30,090 nt of DNA. Source: Candidatus Heimdallarchaeota archaeon. GTDB taxonomy: Archaea; Asgardarchaeota; Heimdallarchaeia; Heimdallarchaeales; Heimdallarchaeaceae. Under the pieces are notes generated by a model that saw only the letters and a list, made by a program, of their open reading frames with translations, searched no databases and had not been told where the DNA came from. Position numbers and translations under genes: made by a program. The stretch is taken from contig JAAFKJ010000080.1 of the NCBI GenBank assembly GCA_021399395.1, positions 1 through 30,090 of the forward strand. The letters are read 5' to 3'. Within the stretch, counting starts at the first letter, position 1. Each line of letters opens with the position of its first letter. Below are positions 1 through 8,269 of the stretch, piece after piece.

Positions 1-1848
1 GATGAATTGGAAGTCAGCCAGCATGATTTTAAAAGAAAAATGGCTCAAGAGATACAGATTAAGGAGAGAATAGAGGATAGATCAACCCTATATGGGAACA
101 TTACTGATTACGAACGAAGGTTGATAAAAGATATTATTTTCTTCAAAGAAAAATTACAATCCTCTAAATATAAGAAAGAGATAGTTGGACCGATTTACGA
201 GATTATCTCTATTAAATCTGGATTTGAAGAATATACTGATGTTATCAAAGCCGCAATAGGACGATACCTTTTTGGTTTTGTAGCTGCATCACATGAAGCT
301 TATACTGATTCGAAAAAGATTTATGATGAAATCTTTCCCTCATACAAACCTAATTTTACGGTCGGTAGAGTTCTTGAAGAAGAGAAAGGACCAAAACCAA
401 ACTTCTTAGTCCAACTAGCACTTGAGTCAAAACCAAGTGGAATTATTGATTATGCTATTAATCTCATTGAAGCACCTTTTCAAGCAAAAATATATCTAAA
501 AAGATTCGTTAAAACTCTATTAGCTACTCCATCAATTTCACCCAATATACTCACTGATTATGCTAAAAGGTATAGGACAAATGTTCTGACCACAGATGGG
601 AAAAGTTTCTATCTTTCGCAAGAAGCTTATTCAAATCCTCCGCGTAAATCCAATATACGACTTGGTGTAGGTTTATCTAAATATCAAACTGTTGAAAGAA
701 TTAGAGAACAGTTACAAGTAGTACAATTCGATATAGAAAAACTTACTGAAGATAAAATAAGAATCAATCGGGAAATTGCAGATGTTGAAGATGAGAAACG
801 AACGTTGGAAAATCAACTCAAACCTTGGACTTTAAATCCAGATGCTATAGAGGATGAATTCCTGAAAATAGAGCAGCTAAAAAGTACAGCAGAAGCACAA
901 ATTCGAACTGAGGAGATAGGTCTCACTACTTTAGATTCATCAATCTCATCATTGTCCAAAGATTTGATCGAGCAAGAATCAATATTGAAAGAAAAAGATC
1001 AATTCTATTCCTTAAAGAAAGAAGAATATAACAAATTGGATGATCAAATTCAATTAGCTATAACAAAAAGAGAGAAACTAATTCGACAACTAGAATTTTT
1101 GAATGCGGAATTCCAAGAAATCAACGAGCAATATCAGATCCTGATGAAAGAGGCTCAAGAAAAAGGTTCTCCACCTGAGAATATCAGAGGAGAGCATGAA
1201 GAAATATTCTCAGAATATAATCAGATAAAAGGTCAGCTCGAGCTTCTTGAAATAACACCAAATATATCACAAGAAGCAATTCTAAAACAGGAAAGCCATG
1301 TTGATATGATTAAGGCTGAAGCACACAAAGCTGAAGAACATCTCCAGAATCTAAAATTAGATCTAAATAAACGAATTACAGAATGGGAAGGTGGCTTACA
1401 CAATATTGTTGATCATATGAATAAGATGTTGAACCTTCTTTTACAAGATATTTTTCTCAACGTATCTATTCAAATAAAGAACTATAACGATGAACGAAAT
1501 GCTGGCCTGTACATAGAAGCTGAGACTAAAGGAGACAATAGAAGATATAGACAATTGTCTGGTGGAGAAAAAACACTACTAGCACAAGCAATTATTTTGG
1601 CTCTACATATGATTAGTCAATCACCAATACATGCAATTGACGAGTTTACTCAAAAACTTGATAGAAAGAATAAGACACTAGCTTTTTCAATGGCTCTATT
1701 GACATATCGACTCGCAAAAGAAAACCGAATGATAACCCCTCAGTTTGTTCTAATAACTCCATCTTTAGATGATGTAGAATTATCAGAGGAATTTTCTCAC
1801 AAAATATTGATAGAAAGCAGAGTAAAAACAAAGGGAGTAAGAAGATGA
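1..1848 (+). CDS. SMC-family ATPase, Smc5/6-like (5'-truncated: hinge, C-terminal coiled coil, C-terminal head lobe)
   Basis: Frame open from base 1. Hinge-like segment IVGPIYEIISIK...IKAAIGRYLFGFVA, long heptad coiled coil, ABC signature LSGGEKT, Walker B/D-loop SPIHAIDEFTQKLD, and terminal PQFVLITP, which resembles the Smc5/Smc6 QxxxITP ending. Confidence 0.9.
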   Translation, partial: DELEVSQHDFKRKMAQEIQIKERIEDRSTLYGNITDYERRLIKDIIFFKEKLQSSKYKKEIVGPIYEIISIKSGFEEYTDVIKAAIGRYLFGFVAASHEAYTDSKKIYDEIFPSYKPNFTVGRVLEEEKGPKPNFLVQLALESKPSGIIDYAINLIEAPFQAKIYLKRFVKTLLATPSISPNILTDYAKRYRTNVLTTDGKSFYLSQEAYSNPPRKSNIRLGVGLSKYQTVERIREQLQVVQFDIEKLTEDKIRINREIADVEDEKRTLENQLKPWTLNPDAIEDEFLKIEQLKSTAEAQIRTEEIGLTTLDSSISSLSKDLIEQESILKEKDQFYSLKKEEYNKLDDQIQLAITKREKLIRQLEFLNAEFQEINEQYQILMKEAQEKGSPPENIRGEHEEIFSEYNQIKGQLELLEITPNISQEAILKQESHVDMIKAEAHKAEEHLQNLKLDLNKRITEWEGGLHNIVDHMNKMLNLLLQDIFLNVSIQIKNYNDERNAGLYIEAETKGDNRRYRQLSGGEKTLLAQAIILALHMISQSPIHAIDEFTQKLDRKNKTLAFSMALLTYRLAKENRMITPQFVLITPSLDDVELSEEFSHKILIESRVKTKGVRR

Positions 1849-2615
1849 CAGATAACGACTTCGTAGAAAGTGAAGCAGAACCAAATGCAGGTTATTTAGA
1901 ACAAGCCAGTGAATGGTCAGAGAATATGTTCTATCTGCTTTTTGAACTTAAGAAGAAATATGATAAATCACTGAAGAACAAAGAAGTTGTAACTGTTAAT
2001 GAATCAGAATCTGACAGAGGAAGTGTGTCAGATGCCTTTCTCTATCTCCATAATGAAAAGGAAAGTTTAGTTGATGCTGCTCTTTATGAAGGGTTCATAA
2101 GAATGAGCGAACTAAGAGAAAAGAGCTTCCTAGATCAAATGCTACATCCAGATCAACGGATGGGAAAATTAGCTGATATTGTTAAGAAACTTTCTACTCC
2201 TATAACCTATTTCTCTAGAGTAAGCAAATTTACTACTGAAGAAATTGTCTCAAGTCTTGACGAACAAATTATAGAACTTGCATCAGATGAAGAGATAGAA
2301 CAATTCATCAATAAGTATCAGCAATATGTTACCAAATTAGCAAATAATTTCTTGAGTAAAGGGGATATTATGAATATTGAAGAAATAATCATAGAAAAGA
2401 TAATCGATAAAAAAATTAGAAAGAGTGAAATTAATCTCATTCTTACAACTGTTGAAGCTGAGATTTTATCTAAAATGATTAGTGAAAGGAAGATTATAGC
2501 AGTTCAAGAAGATGAATTCCTTAGTTTCACATTGAGAAAAGATGATGCGCCTATAAAAGGAATTTCAAGTTCCGTTCTTCTATCTCCAAAAAAACAAAGA
2601 CCTGAAGGTAAATGA
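1845..2615 (+). CDS. Putative kleisin (ScpA/Nse4-like) subunit
   Basis: ATGA overlap with the SMC stop. 256 aa, helical and acidic. C-terminal ILSKMISERKIIAVQEDEFLSFTLR resembles the kleisin C-terminal winged-helix motif (LLxLxxxGKIxLxQEExFGxIxI). Recognised by eye only. Confidence 0.6.
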   Translation: MTDNDFVESEAEPNAGYLEQASEWSENMFYLLFELKKKYDKSLKNKEVVTVNESESDRGSVSDAFLYLHNEKESLVDAALYEGFIRMSELREKSFLDQMLHPDQRMGKLADIVKKLSTPITYFSRVSKFTTEEIVSSLDEQIIELASDEEIEQFINKYQQYVTKLANNFLSKGDIMNIEEIIIEKIIDKKIRKSEINLILTTVEAEILSKMISERKIIAVQEDEFLSFTLRKDDAPIKGISSSVLLSPKKQRPEGK

Positions 2616-2616
2616 G

Positions 2617-3222
2617 ATGGATGAGGACCCCATAGAAGAGGGAGAGGAATCTCTTATTGATCCCACTGTGATTAGCATGCTCCCCCCATCTATATCAGAT
2701 GATGAGAAAGGGCAATTATTCAAGGAATTAACTACAATCTTATCTAGAAAATGGACAAAAGATAAAACCACTGTTTTTGGGTGTTCTGAGTTAGATCTCT
2801 TATTAGCTACAAGATTTGACGTAGCATCGCTCAGGGAAGCATTGGACGAGTATAGATTGTTTGTGAAAATCATAGGATTGGATCTGATTGAATATGATTT
2901 GACTGGTGAAAGGTGGTACTGTTTGAAGTCTTCTTATTACGCACCATCCGAACTTCAACAATCAGAGCTTGTTCTACTTGGGCTAATTATGGCTATGGTA
3001 GAAGAGAATGATCCTAAATCCATAACAACTGAGATAATAAAGAAAAAATTAGTTATCTCAGGAAAAATGAAAGAATATTTAGTAGATTTAGGTTTGAGGA
3101 ACTTAGTCAAAATGGGATACATCCAAAGAAAGAATAATGTTTGGAGTTACAATTACAGAACGTTGATTGAATACGGAGATGAGGAAAGGCAGAAAATATC
3201 TGAGGAGTTCAAAACAATTTGA
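2617..3222 (+). CDS. Putative KITE (tandem winged-helix) subunit, Nse1/Nse3(MAGE)/ScpB-like
   Basis: Starts 1 nt after the upstream stop. IIGLDLIEY...WYCL resembles the WH-A wing. ELVLLGLIMAMV and LRNLVKMGYIQRKNNVWSYNYRTLIEY resemble WH-B of Nse1/Nse3 (…LVxxxYL/WL…xxGxRAxxE). Confidence 0.65.
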   Translation: MDEDPIEEGEESLIDPTVISMLPPSISDDEKGQLFKELTTILSRKWTKDKTTVFGCSELDLLLATRFDVASLREALDEYRLFVKIIGLDLIEYDLTGERWYCLKSSYYAPSELQQSELVLLGLIMAMVEENDPKSITTEIIKKKLVISGKMKEYLVDLGLRNLVKMGYIQRKNNVWSYNYRTLIEYGDEERQKISEEFKTI

Positions 3223-3674
3223 AAGATCAAGATTTGATTCAATGTTATATCCGTTGTACTTTCTGTAATGAAATGGTATCCTTAAAGGAAGCTGCCGTGG
3301 ACGGATGGGAAGTGTGCCAAGGGTGCCAACTTGTCTTCTGTGTAAATTGTAAAACCTCAGCAAAAGACCAAGAACTTTGTCCAGGATCTGTATACACAAT
3401 TAAACACAAAGCTATTTTTCAATTATTACCAGTTGAACAAATTTTGGAAACTGCTCAAGGAATAGAAAAACCAGTAAAAACTGGTAGCTATATTTCAAAA
3501 ATCTTTTTTGATGATGAACGAAGAAAAATAGAATTGCTGAGAAAAGAACAAAACAAAAAAGACCCAATTGATTTCAGTGTTTTTCGATTTAGAGAAGAAC
3601 AGTGGAAAAAGTTTGGAACTGTCCTTGTCAAACGCAAAGATGGTAAGTTCCTTACTTGGGGTCAATTTGAATAA
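3219..3674 (+). CDS. Cys-rich RING/PHD-like zinc-finger protein
   Basis: TTGA overlap with the KITE stop, with GAGGAG at 3202-3207 upstream. Pattern CTFC-x16-CQGC-x4-CVNC-x9-CP…H. Confidence 0.7.
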   Translation: MKDQDLIQCYIRCTFCNEMVSLKEAAVDGWEVCQGCQLVFCVNCKTSAKDQELCPGSVYTIKHKAIFQLLPVEQILETAQGIEKPVKTGSYISKIFFDDERRKIELLRKEQNKKDPIDFSVFRFREEQWKKFGTVLVKRKDGKFLTWGQFE

Positions 3675-3697: not shown

Positions 3698-6586
3698 TTA
3701 TATCCCTGTTATTGCTTCTGCTCTTGATCCTAATATCACATTTGTTATGAATAAGCTAAATATCTGTAGTAACATTAGTAAAACACCTAAAGCACAGAAT
3801 ATTTGGAATTTCAAAGGATTCCAGGCCATATACCATGTGATAGTTCCAGCTTGAGCACTGAAAATCAAGAATATAGTTGTAGATACTTCTGATAGACAAT
3901 ACAAGAACGACACAAGAGAACCTGCAAAGATGTTGAGTGAAATTAGCGGAATAGTTATCTTACCCATGGTCCTCATTCTTGTAGCACCTAAATTGAATGA
4001 TGCTTCTTCAAGAACTGTATCTACTTGTTGTAGACCAGCATACGCAGATCTAAGCGTAAACGGTATTTTCCGTATTGTATAGCTCATTATCAACAGCGTG
4101 ACAGCAACTCCAATAAATGGATCTAATTTCAAACTAGCCGTAACATTCGCCATCATTCTATTAAACCATGTAGGATTGCGACTAACTATACCACTCCAGT
4201 CAAAAGTTCTATAGTATCCTATAGCTAAGACTATACCAGGGATAGCAATTGGGAGAGTCACTATGGCATCTAGTACACCTTTACCTCTGAAGTTTTTACG
4301 GCTGACAACATACGCCGCTAATGTGCCTATCACAATTATGAGCATGGTTGCAATTACACTGTAGATAAGCGTATTAATTACATAGTTCGGTATATTGTAC
4401 CGTGAAGATACGAAGACTAGTTTGTAATTCTCAAACGTGAATTTGATGTCAGACGGCTTCGTACCACCTAGTGTTTCCATAATAGACATCAAGAAAACAC
4501 CCACATGTACTAAGAGCGAAAATGCGAATAGAACAATCAAAAATGGGTAGATAAACAATAATTTCCATTTTGCTTTGGTTAATCTATAATGACCAGCTCT
4601 TCCTTTGCTGACCATTGAATAGGTTCTCAATGAAACATACTTTCGTATAGCAAAGAAACCAAGTAACGCTATTATCAGTAGGATTCCTCCTAAAACACAT
4701 ATCTCAGGCGTAATCTCCGCCGATCCCGCTTTCGAATAATTCTCAAAGATATGATATGGTAGAACTTTCTTTGCTGCATTATCTCCCATTGCTGCAAATA
4801 TGATTGGCGTTCCTACGTCTTCCATAGCAAGGATGAGTACTAAGATTGCACCAGCACCAATACCTGGCATTGCTAGTGGTAAAGTTACAGTAGAGAATAA
4901 TCTGAGTCTTCCTGCACCTAGATTTTCAGCCGATTCTTCCATACTTGGATCTATATTGAGAAAAGATGAAAATGCATTGAGATATACAAGCGCGTAGAAA
5001 TGGGACGTTTGTACAAAGACTATCGCGAATATTCCTGAAAATACAAGTTTAGTCTCGAACGCTGGTATTAGAAAGAAATTATTTAGAAAACCATTAGGAC
5101 CTAGAATTAAACGGAATCCCATACCTGAAATAAAAGGCGGAATAATTAAAGGAGCAAGTGCTAGAAGACTTACTAGTCTCTTACCTGGAAATTCATATCT
5201 GGCCAAGATAAAAGCTAAAGCAACTCCTAAAATAACTGAAAATATAGTAGTTAGAATACCAATTTTGATGGTGTTTAATACCACTCCATGGTTCTTTCCA
5301 CTTAAAGTGATAACTGTTATCATAATTGTATCTTCATAAATGCCTACGTTTTGAAGAACATAGATATCCTGACTATCAATTATCATCAAACCTGCACCCG
5401 ATCGAGCTACGTATATAAGATCATTTGCGGGATCTAACCACAGATCTTCATTGATGTAACCAATAGATTGAAAACTATTTGTTAGAGTAAGATTGGATGG
5501 GTCGGAGATATCGATTATTCTCAGATCATACTCAAAAAGATTATGATTAGATGTTAACAAACATGCATAATCTTCTCCAATATAAACATCATCTGCACGA
5601 GTATTTGTTGTAAGATTATAGAACCCTAATGTGCTCACATTTGCTACATCTGAAATGTTAAATGCAACTAATCCTTCTTTATCTGCCGCAAGATATGCTG
5701 TATCATTGACTATTTCAATACTTTGTGGAGTTAATGTTTCTGTTGAAGCTGGGAAGTGATTATACCTATACAGTTCAATAGGATTTGATTTGTTACTTAT
5801 ATCAAGAACGACCATTCCTGTATCATAACCTACGAGAAACGCATAATCGTCCTTTATTGCAATATCCTTTACTTTTTCTCCAAAAGCATACCCTTCATAC
5901 CTTGTGTTTCTAGATAAAACTTCTGGATTAGATGGATCAGTGGCATTGATAATTGCAAACCCTTGCTCATCAATCCCTAGATAGACATAATCTCCTACAA
6001 CGTTAAGAAAGGTTGTAGAATTAGCAAGATTATAGATCTCAGAAAGTGGTTTGAAACTTTCCTCAATATCTGAGATATTAAAAATCACTAACCCACTTTT
6101 GCCTGCAGCTGTATATAGTAAATCTCCTTCTATTTCTAGCTCCTTAAAACTGGTCAATTCATCATAATATTGCTGAATCTCGACTATGTTATTAGGATCC
6201 GTGACATTAAGTATTTCTATCCCTAGTCCTCTCTCTGCTAAATACGCTATCCCATTGGAAACTGCTACTGCCTCAGTTGGTCCTCCATAGGGTTCCTCGC
6301 CTTTAGTGTAGAAACTTGTTCCTTCCTCTCCTGCAAAATTGAAGTATAATTCATCTGTAAAAACATTGGCGATGGGGGCTCCAGACCATTGACCATTGAA
6401 GTAAACCGCTCCCGTTAACACTGTAAAAAGTGGTATGACCATCCAAATGATGAATACGAACCCAACGAGAACAATGATAAAATTAGTAGAAGGATCTTTT
6501 AAGAGTTTTACATATAATGTATCGATTAATGACCTTTTCTGTTTTCCTCCCCCTTTATCGTCATTTTCTTTACTCGCACTTGCCAT
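3698..6586 (-). CDS. ABC transporter permease (FbpB/ThiP-type, two fused TM modules) with inserted LVIVD-repeat beta-propeller
   Basis: Two EAA loops (MEESAENLGAG, LEEASFNLGAT) and many TM helices. Residues ~100-420 carry ~40-aa repeats such as AYLAERGLGIEILNVTDP, VYLGIDEQGFAIINATDP and AFLVGYDTGMVVLDISNKSNP. Confidence 0.9.
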   Translation of the reverse strand: MASASKENDDKGGGKQKRSLIDTLYVKLLKDPSTNFIIVLVGFVFIIWMVIPLFTVLTGAVYFNGQWSGAPIANVFTDELYFNFAGEEGTSFYTKGEEPYGGPTEAVAVSNGIAYLAERGLGIEILNVTDPNNIVEIQQYYDELTSFKELEIEGDLLYTAAGKSGLVIFNISDIEESFKPLSEIYNLANSTTFLNVVGDYVYLGIDEQGFAIINATDPSNPEVLSRNTRYEGYAFGEKVKDIAIKDDYAFLVGYDTGMVVLDISNKSNPIELYRYNHFPASTETLTPQSIEIVNDTAYLAADKEGLVAFNISDVANVSTLGFYNLTTNTRADDVYIGEDYACLLTSNHNLFEYDLRIIDISDPSNLTLTNSFQSIGYINEDLWLDPANDLIYVARSGAGLMIIDSQDIYVLQNVGIYEDTIMITVITLSGKNHGVVLNTIKIGILTTIFSVILGVALAFILARYEFPGKRLVSLLALAPLIIPPFISGMGFRLILGPNGFLNNFFLIPAFETKLVFSGIFAIVFVQTSHFYALVYLNAFSSFLNIDPSMEESAENLGAGRLRLFSTVTLPLAMPGIGAGAILVLILAMEDVGTPIIFAAMGDNAAKKVLPYHIFENYSKAGSAEITPEICVLGGILLIIALLGFFAIRKYVSLRTYSMVSKGRAGHYRLTKAKWKLLFIYPFLIVLFAFSLLVHVGVFLMSIMETLGGTKPSDIKFTFENYKLVFVSSRYNIPNYVINTLIYSVIATMLIIVIGTLAAYVVSRKNFRGKGVLDAIVTLPIAIPGIVLAIGYYRTFDWSGIVSRNPTWFNRMMANVTASLKLDPFIGVAVTLLIMSYTIRKIPFTLRSAYAGLQQVDTVLEEASFNLGATRMRTMGKITIPLISLNIFAGSLVSFLYCLSEVSTTIFLIFSAQAGTITWYMAWNPLKFQIFCALGVLLMLLQIFSLFITNVILGSRAEAITGI

Positions 6587-6733: not shown

Positions 6734-8269
6734 TTATCTTTTCTTTCGTTTGTAGATTAAAGTTACTGTTGCAATAATCAGTGATGCCATCAAAGCTGGA
6801 ATAAATCCAAATGGTGATGGATCTGTTTCAGTTTCAGTTTCAGTTTCTGTTGGATCTGGTCCAGAAGAACAAGGATCGCCTAATACTTCGAGGATATCAC
6901 AATACTGATCAGCGGCATATTCTCTCCATTCTGCATCCTTATCAGCTGCAAATATTGCATCCGTTTGATACTGAGTATTCCAATCCAAAGACTGATTCTG
7001 CGTCATTCCTGGTACTCCTAATTGATTAGAGAGGTCAAGAAACTGTGTTGCATTAATTGTGAGGTCTCTATATTGAGTTACTAATGTTCCCCAAGTTCTG
7101 CGTAGCAAATTGTGTTTTTGTGTGATGGTGTTGTGGAAGTAGTAAATTGTAGTATCTAAATTGTTAGTGGATAGTTCTTCATCGAAATCAATACCTTTAT
7201 TTGCTAATGTTTCATTGTATAAGGCCCATAATTCTGTATAAGTTGAACCTTCAGGAGTATAAAAAGCTGAATCATTTACCGGAAGACGATCAAGACCTTC
7301 TGTCATCCATGCAGTTTGACCTGCTGGTGATGTAACATATTCCAAGAAAATGGCTGCTTCATCATAGTCATCTACATGAATTCCCATTGCTATAGGATCT
7401 CCGTTTACAATAGATTGTCCTTCTGGAATGATATATTCACAAGCAGGATTCTCTCTGTTAGCAATAGTGCCGTAGAAATCAATTGTCATGGCTATACCGA
7501 CTTCACCGCTTACAACTGCACCTCTTGTATCACCTGAACCTGGATAGATACCTGCGTTAGCACCCATTCTGGTTATGATTTTCCATCCTTCATCCCAGCC
7601 AAAAGCTTGGAGAATGATCTGGTAAATTCTGGTGTTAGAAGTAGTTAATGGTGGATCACCCATACTAATTGCTTTCACGCTATCACTGATATAATAGGTA
7701 GGTGTAGCCAGTTCTTCCCAAGTAGTTGGAATTGGCAGACCATATAAATCCAAGAAATCGTGATTTACGGTAAAACCAAAGGATGAGATAGCATTTGCTG
7801 CCCAAACTAAGTCTTCACCTGCATACTTTTTCATTCCTGCTCCTGCTAACTCCATAGGAACACTATCGTTGATGATTGTAAATAAAGCAGCATCAGCTAC
7901 GGGGTCTATATGATATAAAAGTCCCCAGTTTTCCATTGTGTTAAACAATGCTGGTCCTCCACCCCAAGCAATATCGACAGATTTTGCAGGATCCTCTAGA
8001 TATTTCTTCCAACCATCATCAGTTGTGGCATATCTAAAATCCAATACATCAATATCTGCAGCTATAGCTTCAGGTGTTGCCAAAAATCTGTTTGTAAATT
8101 CGTCAGTAATTGTTACGTCGTGTCGAGTAACAATAGTCAAAGTTACACCATCGAGTTCTGGATTTGAAACAATTGTTGAATCTTGTTCTGCAGTAGACAG
8201 AAACATCGTACTACCTGCTGTTAATGTAACAAGTAACAAAACTAGAATAGCTATTCTTTTAATTTTCAT
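6734..8269 (-). CDS. ABC transporter substrate-binding protein (Fe3+/thiamine FbpA/AfuA-like family), C-terminally anchored
   Basis: Signal peptide. Motifs LTIVTRHD, DIAWGGG, PTTWEEL, GDPPLTTS, IDFYG and DPIAM. TE linker followed by TM helix and KRKKR. Adjacent to the cognate permease. Confidence 0.88.
   Translation of the reverse strand: MKIKRIAILVLLLVTLTAGSTMFLSTAEQDSTIVSNPELDGVTLTIVTRHDVTITDEFTNRFLATPEAIAADIDVLDFRYATTDDGWKKYLEDPAKSVDIAWGGGPALFNTMENWGLLYHIDPVADAALFTIINDSVPMELAGAGMKKYAGEDLVWAANAISSFGFTVNHDFLDLYGLPIPTTWEELATPTYYISDSVKAISMGDPPLTTSNTRIYQIILQAFGWDEGWKIITRMGANAGIYPGSGDTRGAVVSGEVGIAMTIDFYGTIANRENPACEYIIPEGQSIVNGDPIAMGIHVDDYDEAAIFLEYVTSPAGQTAWMTEGLDRLPVNDSAFYTPEGSTYTELWALYNETLANKGIDFDEELSTNNLDTTIYYFHNTITQKHNLLRRTWGTLVTQYRDLTINATQFLDLSNQLGVPGMTQNQSLDWNTQYQTDAIFAADKDAEWREYAADQYCDILEVLGDPCSSGPDPTETETETETDPSPFGFIPALMASLIIATVTLIYKRKKR
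6824..6850. repeat. Hexanucleotide tandem repeat (GTTTCA)n encoding a TETETETET linker
   Basis: GTTTCA x3 + GTTTCT seen directly; in-frame low-complexity linker before the TM anchor. Confidence 0.8.

Follow-up and report, generated by a model that had tools for sequence, protein, structure and literature searches.

The SMC operon in the window, which is the whole 30,090-nucleotide stretch analysed here from a contig of a Heimdallarchaeaceae archaeon, carries a conserved gene for a small zinc protein with a predicted RING-like domain directly after its KITE gene. In several sister families of Asgard archaea, this gene is linked to a cassette for ubiquitin-like (Ubl) conjugation. The reading preferred here, given a probability of about 60%, is that the zinc protein is a RING-like adaptor tying the SMC–kleisin–KITE complex to Ubl conjugation, and that it has been orphaned in the window's own family. 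Because a RING-type gene follows the SMC genes and adjoins a tagging cassette in relatives, the link between SMC complexes and protein tagging may predate eukaryotes.

Table 1. Coordinates of the operon genes and of features within the KITE and zinc protein genes (window numbering)
Feature	Position	Strand	Remarks
SMC-family ATPase, C-terminal 615 aa	1..1848	+	5′ part cut by contig end; partial matches to Pfam SMC_N and NCBIfam SMC_prok_B
256-aa gene in kleisin position, between SMC and KITE	1845..2615	+	assigned by position only
KITE-like ORF	2617..3222	+	201 aa; tandem winged helix
GAGGAG, Shine-Dalgarno-like, within the KITE coding end	3202..3207	+	11 nt upstream of TTG
151-aa zinc protein ORF (operon gene 4)	3219..3674	+	TTG start; 29 homologues found
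TTGA start/stop overlap	3219..3222	+	TTG start of the zinc gene, TGA stop of KITE
Predicted RING-like two-zinc domain, residues 8–84	3240..3470	+	C13/C16, C33/C36, C41/C44, C54/H63, then helix
Basic C-terminal motif, residues 121–149	3579..3665	+	R-F-R-E-E-Q-W ... V-K-R-K-D-G-K-F ... W-G-Q; invariant columns, 22-sequence alignment

Pfam and NCBIfam searches on the four window proteins return a match for the SMC alone. Full-length orthologues in relatives have 943–1019 aa, and one of these, at locus L002, matches Smc, SMC6, SMC1/3, and SMC5 in the PDB at E values of 3e-9 to 1e-5. In two closed genomes of Heimdallarchaeaceae, the operon SMC is the sole SMC_hinge match, and ScpB over cut-off is absent from both. 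The 256-aa gene is retained at the same place in 20 loci and is called a kleisin by position; its product has no Pfam or PADLOC match, 0 PDB matches at E ≤ 10, and no usable match in the ESM Atlas.

That the third protein has a KITE fold, as the earlier note held, is borne out by fold searches with its model. The best Foldseek match is 7dg2_A, a chain of the Nse1–Nse3–Nse4 complex (E 1.2e-4), and the matches include Nse1/Nse3 chains and JetB. The protein thus presents the tandem winged helix of a KITE next to an SMC gene and a gene that is a kleisin by position. In a sequence search against solved structures, the KITE protein has no significant match (cullin WHB, E 0.19), and no Nse1 is aligned at E ≤ 10. 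Since there is a single KITE gene and a single SMC gene, homodimers are expected.

The KITE and zinc genes are translationally coupled. The features of their junction described in the earlier note all hold in the ORFs: the zinc ORF lies in the −1 frame relative to the KITE ORF with an overlap of 4 nt, GAGGAG precedes the TTG, and RTLIEY, a putative Nse1-like motif, occupies residues 181–186 near the KITE end. A single base inserted before 3219 would join both frames, as expected of a single gene disrupted by an indel in sequencing or assembly, or of two frames that the cell joins through programmed frameshifting. The chance of either is close to nil. The junction at 3219–3222 is bridged by contigs of 4/4 other sequencing runs from two studies, with 0 gaps and 0 differences, and the identical overlap recurs in 27/27 loci of the window's family, always with a start-capable codon (TTG in 24, GTG in 2, and ATG in 1). 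In other lineages, the genes are separated by spacers of 0–38 nt containing a stop. A comparison of junction loci across lineages reveals no conserved slippery sequence ahead of the KITE stop, and the zinc reading frame has a stop at 3201–3203. These are therefore two real genes, as had been proposed. A GGAG, GGAGG, or GGTG core lies 8–12 nt upstream of the zinc start in most lineages, non-coding spacers included. In Heimdallarchaeaceae, GAGGAG also codes for a conserved Glu-Glu-Phe, so that its conservation there has two possible causes.

The genome has one copy of the zinc gene, and in relatives, too, this gene is associated with the SMC operon. KITE stands directly upstream of it in 40/41 Asgard genomes examined, and the order SMC–kleisin–KITE–zinc is found in 20 loci, those with enough flank. 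The same KITE–zinc order is seen in 10 of 12 metagenome loci whose upstream flank is available, in a scan that used the narrower alignment A8 (the broader A3 and A6 being too diverse) and is thereby biased towards one subgroup. On a short contig of genome G079, the zinc gene lies behind a GTPase-like ORF rather than KITE, and the surroundings of two homologues (L080 and L081) are bacterial-like, with neither KITE nor kleisin nor cassette. The zinc gene occurs in 61 of 400 Asgard genomes and the KITE family in 70, both in one and the same set of families; related genomes do not count as independent samples. The zinc gene of family f3 is missed by the 22-sequence profile (A1) and found with the 42-sequence profile (A3), while none of the 12 genomes of f4, from the same order, and none of the 22 of f5, from the same class, has a zinc gene. 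A search of 1.84 billion representatives with the zinc profile returns 40 clusters, 39 of them 69–192 aa in length. One candidate fusion, P0105 with 2155 aa, was judged spurious: this Ig-like repeat protein aligns to the profile at positions 121–144 alone, ten times over.

The zinc protein harbors eight ligands that form four pairs, spaced in a way compatible with a RING, C13-x2-C16-x16-C33-x2-C36-x4-C41-x2-C44-x9-C54-P...H63. This pattern had been read correctly from the outset and is no chance arrangement: conservation extends to all eight positions in the 22-sequence alignment and to most of them in the 42-sequence alignment. In the latter, ligand 2 is C, H, or D, and ligand 8 is either H63 or, in seven sequences, a cysteine five residues past C54. 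Pair 2 is kept in 42/42 sequences and pair 3 in 40/42. The two sequences without pair 3 (P0109 and P0112) also lack pair 1 and retain pairs 2 and 4; with 33% identity between them, they fall into one group, so the joint loss was probably a single event.

A cross-brace RING-like domain is predicted. In three fold-search lists for the domain, nearly all rows are RING, U-box, SP-RING, ZZ, or p44 RING structures, and both these matches and the conservation and joint loss of ligand pairs are compatible with the putative cross-brace pairing. The TFIIH p44 RING is among the best fold matches of the model with the highest identity (23–33%), and Nse2 SP-RING chains are among the 50 best matches in two lists. 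The fold matches, and the fact that pairs 1 and 3 are lost together, speak against sequential, IBR-like zinc sites. At the sequence level, none of the 42 members scores above the cut-off of a Pfam RING model; the best sub-cut-off scores are for zf-RING_UBOX (E 1.9e-4, two members) and zf-C3HC4 (E 0.001, three members). In a sequence search against solved structures, the zinc protein has no significant match (RPA12, E 0.021; RNF4, E 0.052).

The IBR profile weakly matches 12/42 members (E 0.04–0.13), and the ESM Atlas places the protein near IBR-bearing clusters at 0.88, below the 0.9 line and hence a lead only. IBR is not a cross-brace fold, and these weak sequence matches count against the RING reading.

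No part of the zinc protein is better conserved than the C-terminal motif, which is rich in lysine and arginine (22-sequence alignment). In the 42-sequence alignment, W129 is invariant, and E127, V135, R139, G142, and W147 are nearly so. The region has low confidence in the AF2 model. Paralogues that consist of the RING part without this motif also exist; these RING-only paralogues are located inside the Ubl cassette of family f12.

The cassette itself, private to the zinc locus, comprises genes for JAB, E1, Ubl, and E2-like proteins and is present in five Asgard families (f6, f7, f8, f12, and f29). It also adjoins the zinc gene in 10/15 metagenome loci, with JAB and E1 directly downstream in 10 of the 12 that have downstream flank. 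At L054 and L055, the zinc gene is followed by Prok-JAB (E 4.6e-9 and 1.6e-8) and ThiF (E 1e-38 and 2e-36); L054 additionally encodes a 103-aa ORF with a terminal glycine and an E2-like ORF (UQ_con E 0.0042) with an invariant HPR...AC. Cassette and zinc gene share their family distribution: the private E2-like family occurs in 32/400 Asgard genomes, all in families that have the zinc gene (f6 2/2, f7 10/12, f8 1/1, and f12 19/19). The general distribution of E2 proteins does not discriminate, as UQ_con is present in 296/400 Asgard genomes. One zinc-bearing genome of 93% completeness (G001) has no UQ_con match, yet encodes the private E2-like protein.

In Heimdallarchaeaceae, the cassette is absent from the locus. 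The private E2-like family is found in 0/30 genomes of this family, nor is it found in G000, which has no orthologue of the private Ubl, the E2-like protein, or orf98. Heimdallarchaeaceae either lost the cassette or never had it. The window's own genome has four UQ_con, three ThiF, and two ubiquitin matches over cut-off, and canonical RING genes are also present. The ubiquitin-like connection suggested in the earlier note is thus upheld by gene context in relatives and finds no counterpart at the window's locus.

These observations can be accommodated by a model in which the 151-aa protein would be a dedicated accessory subunit of the Asgard SMC–kleisin–KITE complex, made from its own gene coupled to that of KITE. 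Its N-terminal half would form a cross-brace RING-like domain of the archaeal “small RING finger protein” type known from eukaryote-like ubiquitin operons, while the basic C-terminal motif may serve as its anchor, either on DNA or on KITE, the kleisin, or the SMC head within the SMC module. As the zinc gene lies directly beside the JAB/E1/Ubl/E2-like cassette in relatives, the protein is most likely an E3 or adaptor, through which Ubl conjugation would reach the SMC complex or the cargo that it holds. We infer that the zinc protein binds the SMC complex; its E3 activity and its targets are likewise putative. Its role could be analogous to those of Nse1 and Nse2 in eukaryotic SMC5/6. In Heimdallarchaeaceae, the protein may work with the genome's eukaryote-like E1, E2, and ubiquitin genes or may have a structural role only.

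The last point bears on an alternative that is possible but rather improbable, namely that the zinc protein, if only in the lineage of the window, is a structural or DNA-binding zinc subunit that takes no part in conjugation. The cassette is absent in Heimdallarchaeaceae, yet the eight ligands and the C-terminal motif are invariant, and a Lys/Arg-rich motif as the best conserved part of the protein fits such a subunit. The positions presumed to contact E2, which correspond to the E2-binding positions of canonical RINGs, are unconserved: the residue two past C13 is F in Heimdallarchaeaceae and G, A, or T elsewhere. The high-ranking p44 match is also consistent with a structural function, as the p44 RING of TFIIH binds p34 structurally. 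However, a merely structural protein would hardly account for the tight coupling to JAB/E1/Ubl/E2-like genes, both in position and at the family level, across five families and 10 metagenome loci, and the window's own genome does encode E1, E2, ubiquitin, and canonical RING proteins.

A close archaeal parallel to such an adaptor is the small RING finger protein (srfp) encoded in the Ubl-E2-E1-srfp/Rpn11 cluster of Caldiarchaeum subterraneum, for which the motif C-X2-C-X11-C-X2-C-X4-H-X2-C-X10-C-X2-C is given in the portion of the report consulted (PMC3082918). Each of the two is a small RING-type protein of archaea that stands alone, the zinc gene of relatives adjoins JAB, E1, Ubl, and E2-like genes, and the central spacing C-x2-C-x4-[C/H]-x2-C-x9/10-C is equal when compared by the printed motif. 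In contrast to srfp, ligand 5 of the zinc family is a cysteine and its last pair is C-x8-H or C-x4-C; the family lies in an SMC–kleisin–KITE operon and has the C-terminal motif. In the same consulted portion, the Caldiarchaeum SMC operon is described separately from the Ubl cluster. The srfp-type context beside E1, E2, Ubl, and JAB is seen in f6, f7, f8, f12, and f29 and in 10 metagenome loci, and is absent in Heimdallarchaeaceae.

Eukaryotic Nse1 likewise consists of a tandem winged-helix KITE followed by a RING-type two-zinc domain and is attached to an SMC–kleisin complex. The earlier note raised the possibility that the KITE and zinc proteins represent an unfused, ancestral Nse1. On this reading, the zinc domain would be directly homologous to the Nse1 RING, and the fusion would have taken place on the eukaryotic stem. 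The shared domain order, the 4-nt overlap, the match of the KITE model to the Nse1–Nse3–Nse4 complex, and the predicted RING-like fold of the zinc domain are compatible with this proposal. So is the four-residue gap between ligands 4 and 5, which is also found in C4HC3 RING variants such as Nse1. In the sections consulted of 10.1101/2024.01.07.573240, the Nse1 RING is described as “absent in ... archaeal kites” and as a eukaryotic innovation, such that a precursor would fill a stated gap.

Nevertheless, the proposal appears decidedly unlikely, and the searches did not sustain it. SMC_Nse1 (PF07574) does not match the window KITE and scores under cut-off on 1/35 KITE members (E 0.0022), and zf-RING-like (PF08746) matches neither the window zinc gene nor any of the 42 zinc members (0/42). 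Thus, of the hallmarks of Nse1, the KITE fold is present, while the SMC_Nse1 sequence match and a zf-RING-like domain in the same chain are missing. KITE and zinc genes are separate in all loci examined. The zinc profile found no Nse1 and no natural KITE–zinc fusion, for which a search had been proposed, among the 1.84 billion representatives; a word search for longer proteins with the KITE profile, which constitutes weak evidence, also gave no fusion. In two fold-search lists for the zinc domain, the 50 best rows include the Nse2 SP-RING and no Nse1 chain, although a family outside these 50 may still match. As no sequence or fold search tied the zinc domain to the Nse1 RING, a split Nse1 is not shown. 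Further differences from Nse1 are the extra C-terminal motif and the single KITE and SMC genes with their expected homodimers. The closer kin of the zinc gene are the RING-only paralogues in the Ubl cassette, and the lack of the gene in f4 and f5 also argues against this ancestry.

The Nse2/Mms21 SP-RING SUMO ligase binds one zinc ion and docks on the SMC5 arm. In contrast, the zinc protein has eight ligands, and its gene adjoins KITE. No SMC complex other than eukaryotic SMC5/6 is known to have ubiquitin and SUMO ligases built in. It is conceivable, albeit unlikely, that the coupling of SMC, RING, and Ubl arose in Asgard archaea and that the zinc gene is a forerunner of the E3 arm of SMC5/6, giving rise to the Nse1 RING by fusion or corresponding functionally to Nse1/Nse2. 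If true, the Nse1 RING would not be a eukaryotic innovation. Recombinant proteins would allow direct tests of whether archaea regulate an SMC complex through protein tagging and whether the SMC5/6 ligases may have an archaeal root.

SMC5/6-related SMC–kleisin–kite operons of TACK and Asgard archaea have been described (10.1101/2024.01.07.573240; PMC8665677). They share the three-gene core and the homodimer logic with the operon of the window. In contrast to the latter, they are presented with three subunits and a RING absent from archaeal kites, and “zinc” is not mentioned in the parts of these sources consulted. A literature search found no description of the zinc gene.

Bacterial E1-E2-JAB-Ubl operons (Bil/Bub and CBASS Cap2/Cap3) resemble the cassette in make-up and are mostly not known to include a RING. 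The Asgard cassette differs from them in being tied to an SMC module and in including RING-like proteins. Its JAB and E1 match the PADLOC CBASS-type JAB and E1-E2 models (E 5.8e-8 and 5.9e-18), and there are weak matches of the SMC to Lamassu LmuB (E 3.5e-14) and to JetC (E 1.6e-5). With JetB among the KITE fold matches, and with eukaryotic SMC5/6 also restricting extrachromosomal DNA, the module together with E1, E2, and JAB could be regarded as an anti-plasmid or anti-virus island of the Wadjet, Lamassu, or CBASS-regulator kind rather than a housekeeping system. This is considered very unlikely, as the kleisin-position, KITE, and zinc proteins have no PADLOC match, and of the Wadjet or Lamassu models only those for the SMC are matched. 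Moreover, the module is single copy, its distribution follows families, and it contains the only SMC_hinge gene of the two closed genomes without ScpB over cut-off. Its neighborhood is stable across the family's genera, with the same 1030-aa ORF upstream and a large, similar-sized ORF (~960 aa) nearby downstream.

The database gene call for the zinc protein comprises 133 aa and omits the N-terminal 18 residues, which are kept in the 150–151-aa homologues. Many database gene calls of the family begin at Met19, thereby cutting off the first zinc ligand pair, a common annotation error that the present start assignment corrects.

The gene for the zinc protein is shown to be a conserved fourth gene of an SMC operon, translationally coupled to the KITE gene. 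The window holds four ORFs, head to tail on the + strand (see table), the last two sharing TTGA as overlap. The earlier note had favored two real genes over an indel, and this holds: contigs of four other runs (two studies) span the junction at 3219-3222 with 0 gaps and 0 differences, and the 4-nt overlap is kept in 27/27 loci of the window's family (f1, Heimdallarchaeaceae), where the zinc gene starts with TTG (24), GTG (2), or ATG (1). In other lineages, the genes abut, have a spacer of at most 38 nt, or share ~13-90 nt, the extent varying with the start codon assumed, and an SD-like GGAG/GGTG core lies 8-12 nt before the zinc start. The KITE and zinc ORFs are thus two genes, with no error. 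The natural fusions envisaged earlier for other genomes were not encountered, with none fused among 40 zinc-profile matches in 1.84 billion representatives; 39/40 span 69-192 aa, and the single long match was rejected as a spurious repeat protein.

Features of the operon, its flanks, and related loci (L0xx, loci from relatives or metagenomes; G000, source genome, with contigs C179 and C180)
Feature	Location	Strand	Remarks
SMC-family C-terminal part	window 1-1848	+	cut by contig end
256-aa ORF, kleisin position	window 1845-2615	+	ORF
201-aa ORF, predicted KITE	window 2617-3222	+	ORF
GAGGAG	window 3202-3207	+	SD-like motif
151-aa ORF, zinc protein	window 3219-3674	+	ORF, TTG start
Segment before Met19	window 3219-3272	+
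962-aa ORF	window 3698-6586	-	convergent to operon
511-aa ORF	window 6734-8269	-	convergent to operon
~1030-aa ORF	L002:2443-5541; L004:1386-4505; L062-L065		upstream of SMC; weak CARDB/DUF11-like matches only
187-aa ORF	L060:849-1412 (G079:C115)		upstream of zinc gene
Prok-JAB peptidase	L054, after zinc gene	same as zinc gene	E 4.6e-9
ThiF-type E1	L054	same as zinc gene	E 1e-38
103-aa ORF	L054	same as zinc gene	C-terminal Gly
E2-like, 259 aa	L054	same as zinc gene	UQ_con E 0.0042; invariant HPR...AC
98-aa ORF (orf98)	L054	same as zinc gene	ORF
RING-only zinc paralogues	L054:18105-18482; L057:2021-2413; L058:9360-9755; L059:9407-9766		119-131 aa
Aromatic amino acid lyases (1-2)	L054:11942-15640; L083, L087, L088, L089		after cassette
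Cassette with kinase	L078:1960-4914		one metagenome lineage
Zinc homologues	L080:10001-10465; L081:9989-10465		47% identical to P0093
Eukaryote-like ubiquitin cluster	G000:C179:13783-19610		E1, ubiquitin-like gene, weak RING, weak JAB, E2
Eukaryote-like ubiquitin cluster	G000:C180:12309-14091		ubiquitin, ThiF E1, UQ_con E2

The order SMC-kleisin-KITE-zinc protein is found in 20 loci with enough flank. The KITE gene lies directly 5′ of the zinc gene in 40/41 Asgard genomes examined (28 in f1 and 12 in families f2, f3, f6, f7, f8, f12, and f29), which bears out the proposed tie of the zinc gene to the operon. In the sole exception (genome G079), the zinc gene lies behind a GTPase-like ORF with a small-GTPase-like W-D-V-G-G-Q motif, on a 2.6-kb contig, and the KITE gene ends another contig. 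Profile searches of 400 Asgard genomes give 61 zinc-protein and 70 KITE matches, in the same families; because the genomes are related and not independent, these counts show conservation, not statistics. Both genes are missing from the same three f1 genomes, and weak KITE matches in families f14 and f5 belong to other SMC operons without a zinc gene. In several genera of the window's family, the SMC gene is immediately preceded by a conserved ~1030-aa ORF, a position that the contig of the window does not reach.

Archaeal SMC operons are described as three-gene, and the Nse1 RING is termed absent from archaeal kites, in the accessible text of 10.1101/2024.01.07.573240, where the word “zinc” does not occur; the accessible part of PMC8665677 treats SMC proteins only. 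The literature searched yielded no paper describing a RING-like gene within archaeal SMC operons. A reading of the operon as a defense system is weak: 3/4 operon proteins have no PADLOC match, and the single-copy locus is stable.

The Cys/His pattern quoted earlier for the zinc ORF matches the sequence exactly. The public gene call (P0001, 133 aa) starts at Met19, and the 18 residues before it hold the first CxxC, conserved in the 150-151-aa homologues of a 22-sequence alignment. This start is common in public calls (also P0006-P0008, P0016, P0019-P0021, and P0023), from which the first zinc ligand pair is therefore lost. The protein has three parts: residues 8-84 (model pLDDT 80-90), a Lys/Glu-rich linker, and an invariant, poorly modelled basic motif at residues 121-149. 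Ligand pair 2 is retained in 42/42 aligned sequences and pair 3 in 40/42, and C13 is missing only from two calls that are truncated and from the two homologues without pair 3. Most sequences have C, H, or D as the second ligand; the eighth is H63, with a Cys five positions after C54 as the alternative in 7 sequences.

The matches listed in fold searches with the zinc-protein model are almost only RING-type domains, including APC11, Rbx1, Ring1b, ZZ domains, and the Nse2 SP-RING, and the fold is predicted to be RING-like. Two homologues (P0109 and P0112) lack both pairs 1 and 3 and keep pairs 2 and 4, a joint absence that fits the predicted cross-brace and not a sequential arrangement. Since the two (33% identical) belong to one subgroup, this loss is probably a single event; the cross-brace RING supposed in the earlier note is thus favored by the fold matches and by a pattern that probably arose once. 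The zinc protein most resembles the small RING finger protein encoded in the Caldiarchaeum Ubl cluster; the motif printed for that protein in the accessible part of PMC3082918 has the same central spacing.

By sequence, the 201-aa protein matches no known family, and its homologues match MksE (8/35), MAGE (5/35), and SMC_Nse1 (1/35) only weakly. The AF2 model of the 201-aa protein (pLDDT 82) is a tandem winged helix. Foldseek matches it best to 7dg2_A, a chain from the Nse1-Nse3-Nse4 complex (E 1.2e-4), then to Pyrococcus ScpB (E 2.3e-4); MAGE-G1/NSE1, MukE, and JetB come next. On these fold matches, the protein is assigned as a KITE, its modelled nearness to Nse1/Nse3 versus ScpB being a tie. 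The “split Nse1” idea is not supported, as no test run placed the zinc protein in the Nse1 family; its putative function would be analogous to that of Nse1 and Nse2 in SMC5/6.

The 256-aa protein is named a kleisin by position only. The operon SMC matches PDB Smc, SMC6, SMC1/3, and SMC5 at E 3e-9 to 1e-5, falls far from the cut-off of the canonical SMC model, and is judged by sequence similarity to be a true SMC relative. It is the sole SMC_hinge match in two closed genomes of the window's family (G015 and G016), in which no ScpB exceeds the cut-off. The family appears to be without canonical SMC-ScpAB, and the operon seems to be its only SMC complex.

In relatives, position and family distribution show the zinc gene to be wired to a Ubl conjugation cassette. 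In family f7 (L054), JAB, E1, a 103-aa ORF, an E2-like gene, and orf98 come after it, all in its orientation; JAB and E1 follow it in f8 (L055) and f29, and a JAB fragment at a contig end in f6. The f12 cassette, divergent from the SMC gene, comprises Ubl, E2-like, a small ORF, and a RING-only zinc paralogue, with E1 and JAB nearby. Of 15 metagenome loci gathered with a subgroup alignment, 10 carry JAB and E1 directly 3′ of the zinc gene, 3 lack sequence downstream of it, and 2 (L080 and L081) show a bacterial-like context with neither KITE nor cassette. The private E2-like family occurs in 32/400 Asgard genomes (f6 2/2, f7 10/12, f8 1/1, f12 19/19), with none in any other family.

The zinc homologues of L080 and L081 are flanked by an NtrC-type sigma-54 regulator upstream and MiaA downstream; a 928-aa SMC_N/AAA_23 ATPase lies two genes upstream, with no kleisin. 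The cassette of L078 encodes a 647-aa Ser/Thr protein kinase and a 322-aa fusion of Ubl and E2-like protein, with Gly-Gly at the joint. One of the aromatic amino acid lyases of f7-like loci has an inserted rubredoxin domain. The RING-only paralogues keep the zinc ligand pattern and lack the C-terminal motif; those of f12 lie directly 3′ of orf98, inside the cassette, and that of f7 ~9.5 kb downstream of the operon.

The C-terminal motif may dock the zinc protein on the SMC module or DNA, and the RING-like domain would recruit the charged E2-like enzyme. Subunits or cargo of the SMC complex could be tagged as a result, with the JAB peptidase reversing or processing the tag.

The ubiquitin-like link suggested earlier finds support in the gene neighborhoods of these relatives but not at the window's own locus: f1, f2, and f3 have no cassette beside the operon. 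The private E2-like family is absent from G000 and 30/30 other f1 genomes, and G000 (81.8% complete) has no orthologues of the private Ubl, E2-like gene, or small ORF. The zinc protein is fully conserved in the window's family despite the absent cassette, as an orphan that would either draw on other E2s or serve a structural role. Matches over the cut-off in G000 comprise 10 zf-RING_2, 4 UQ_con, 3 ThiF, and 2 ubiquitin, the last three kinds partly clustered on C179 and C180.
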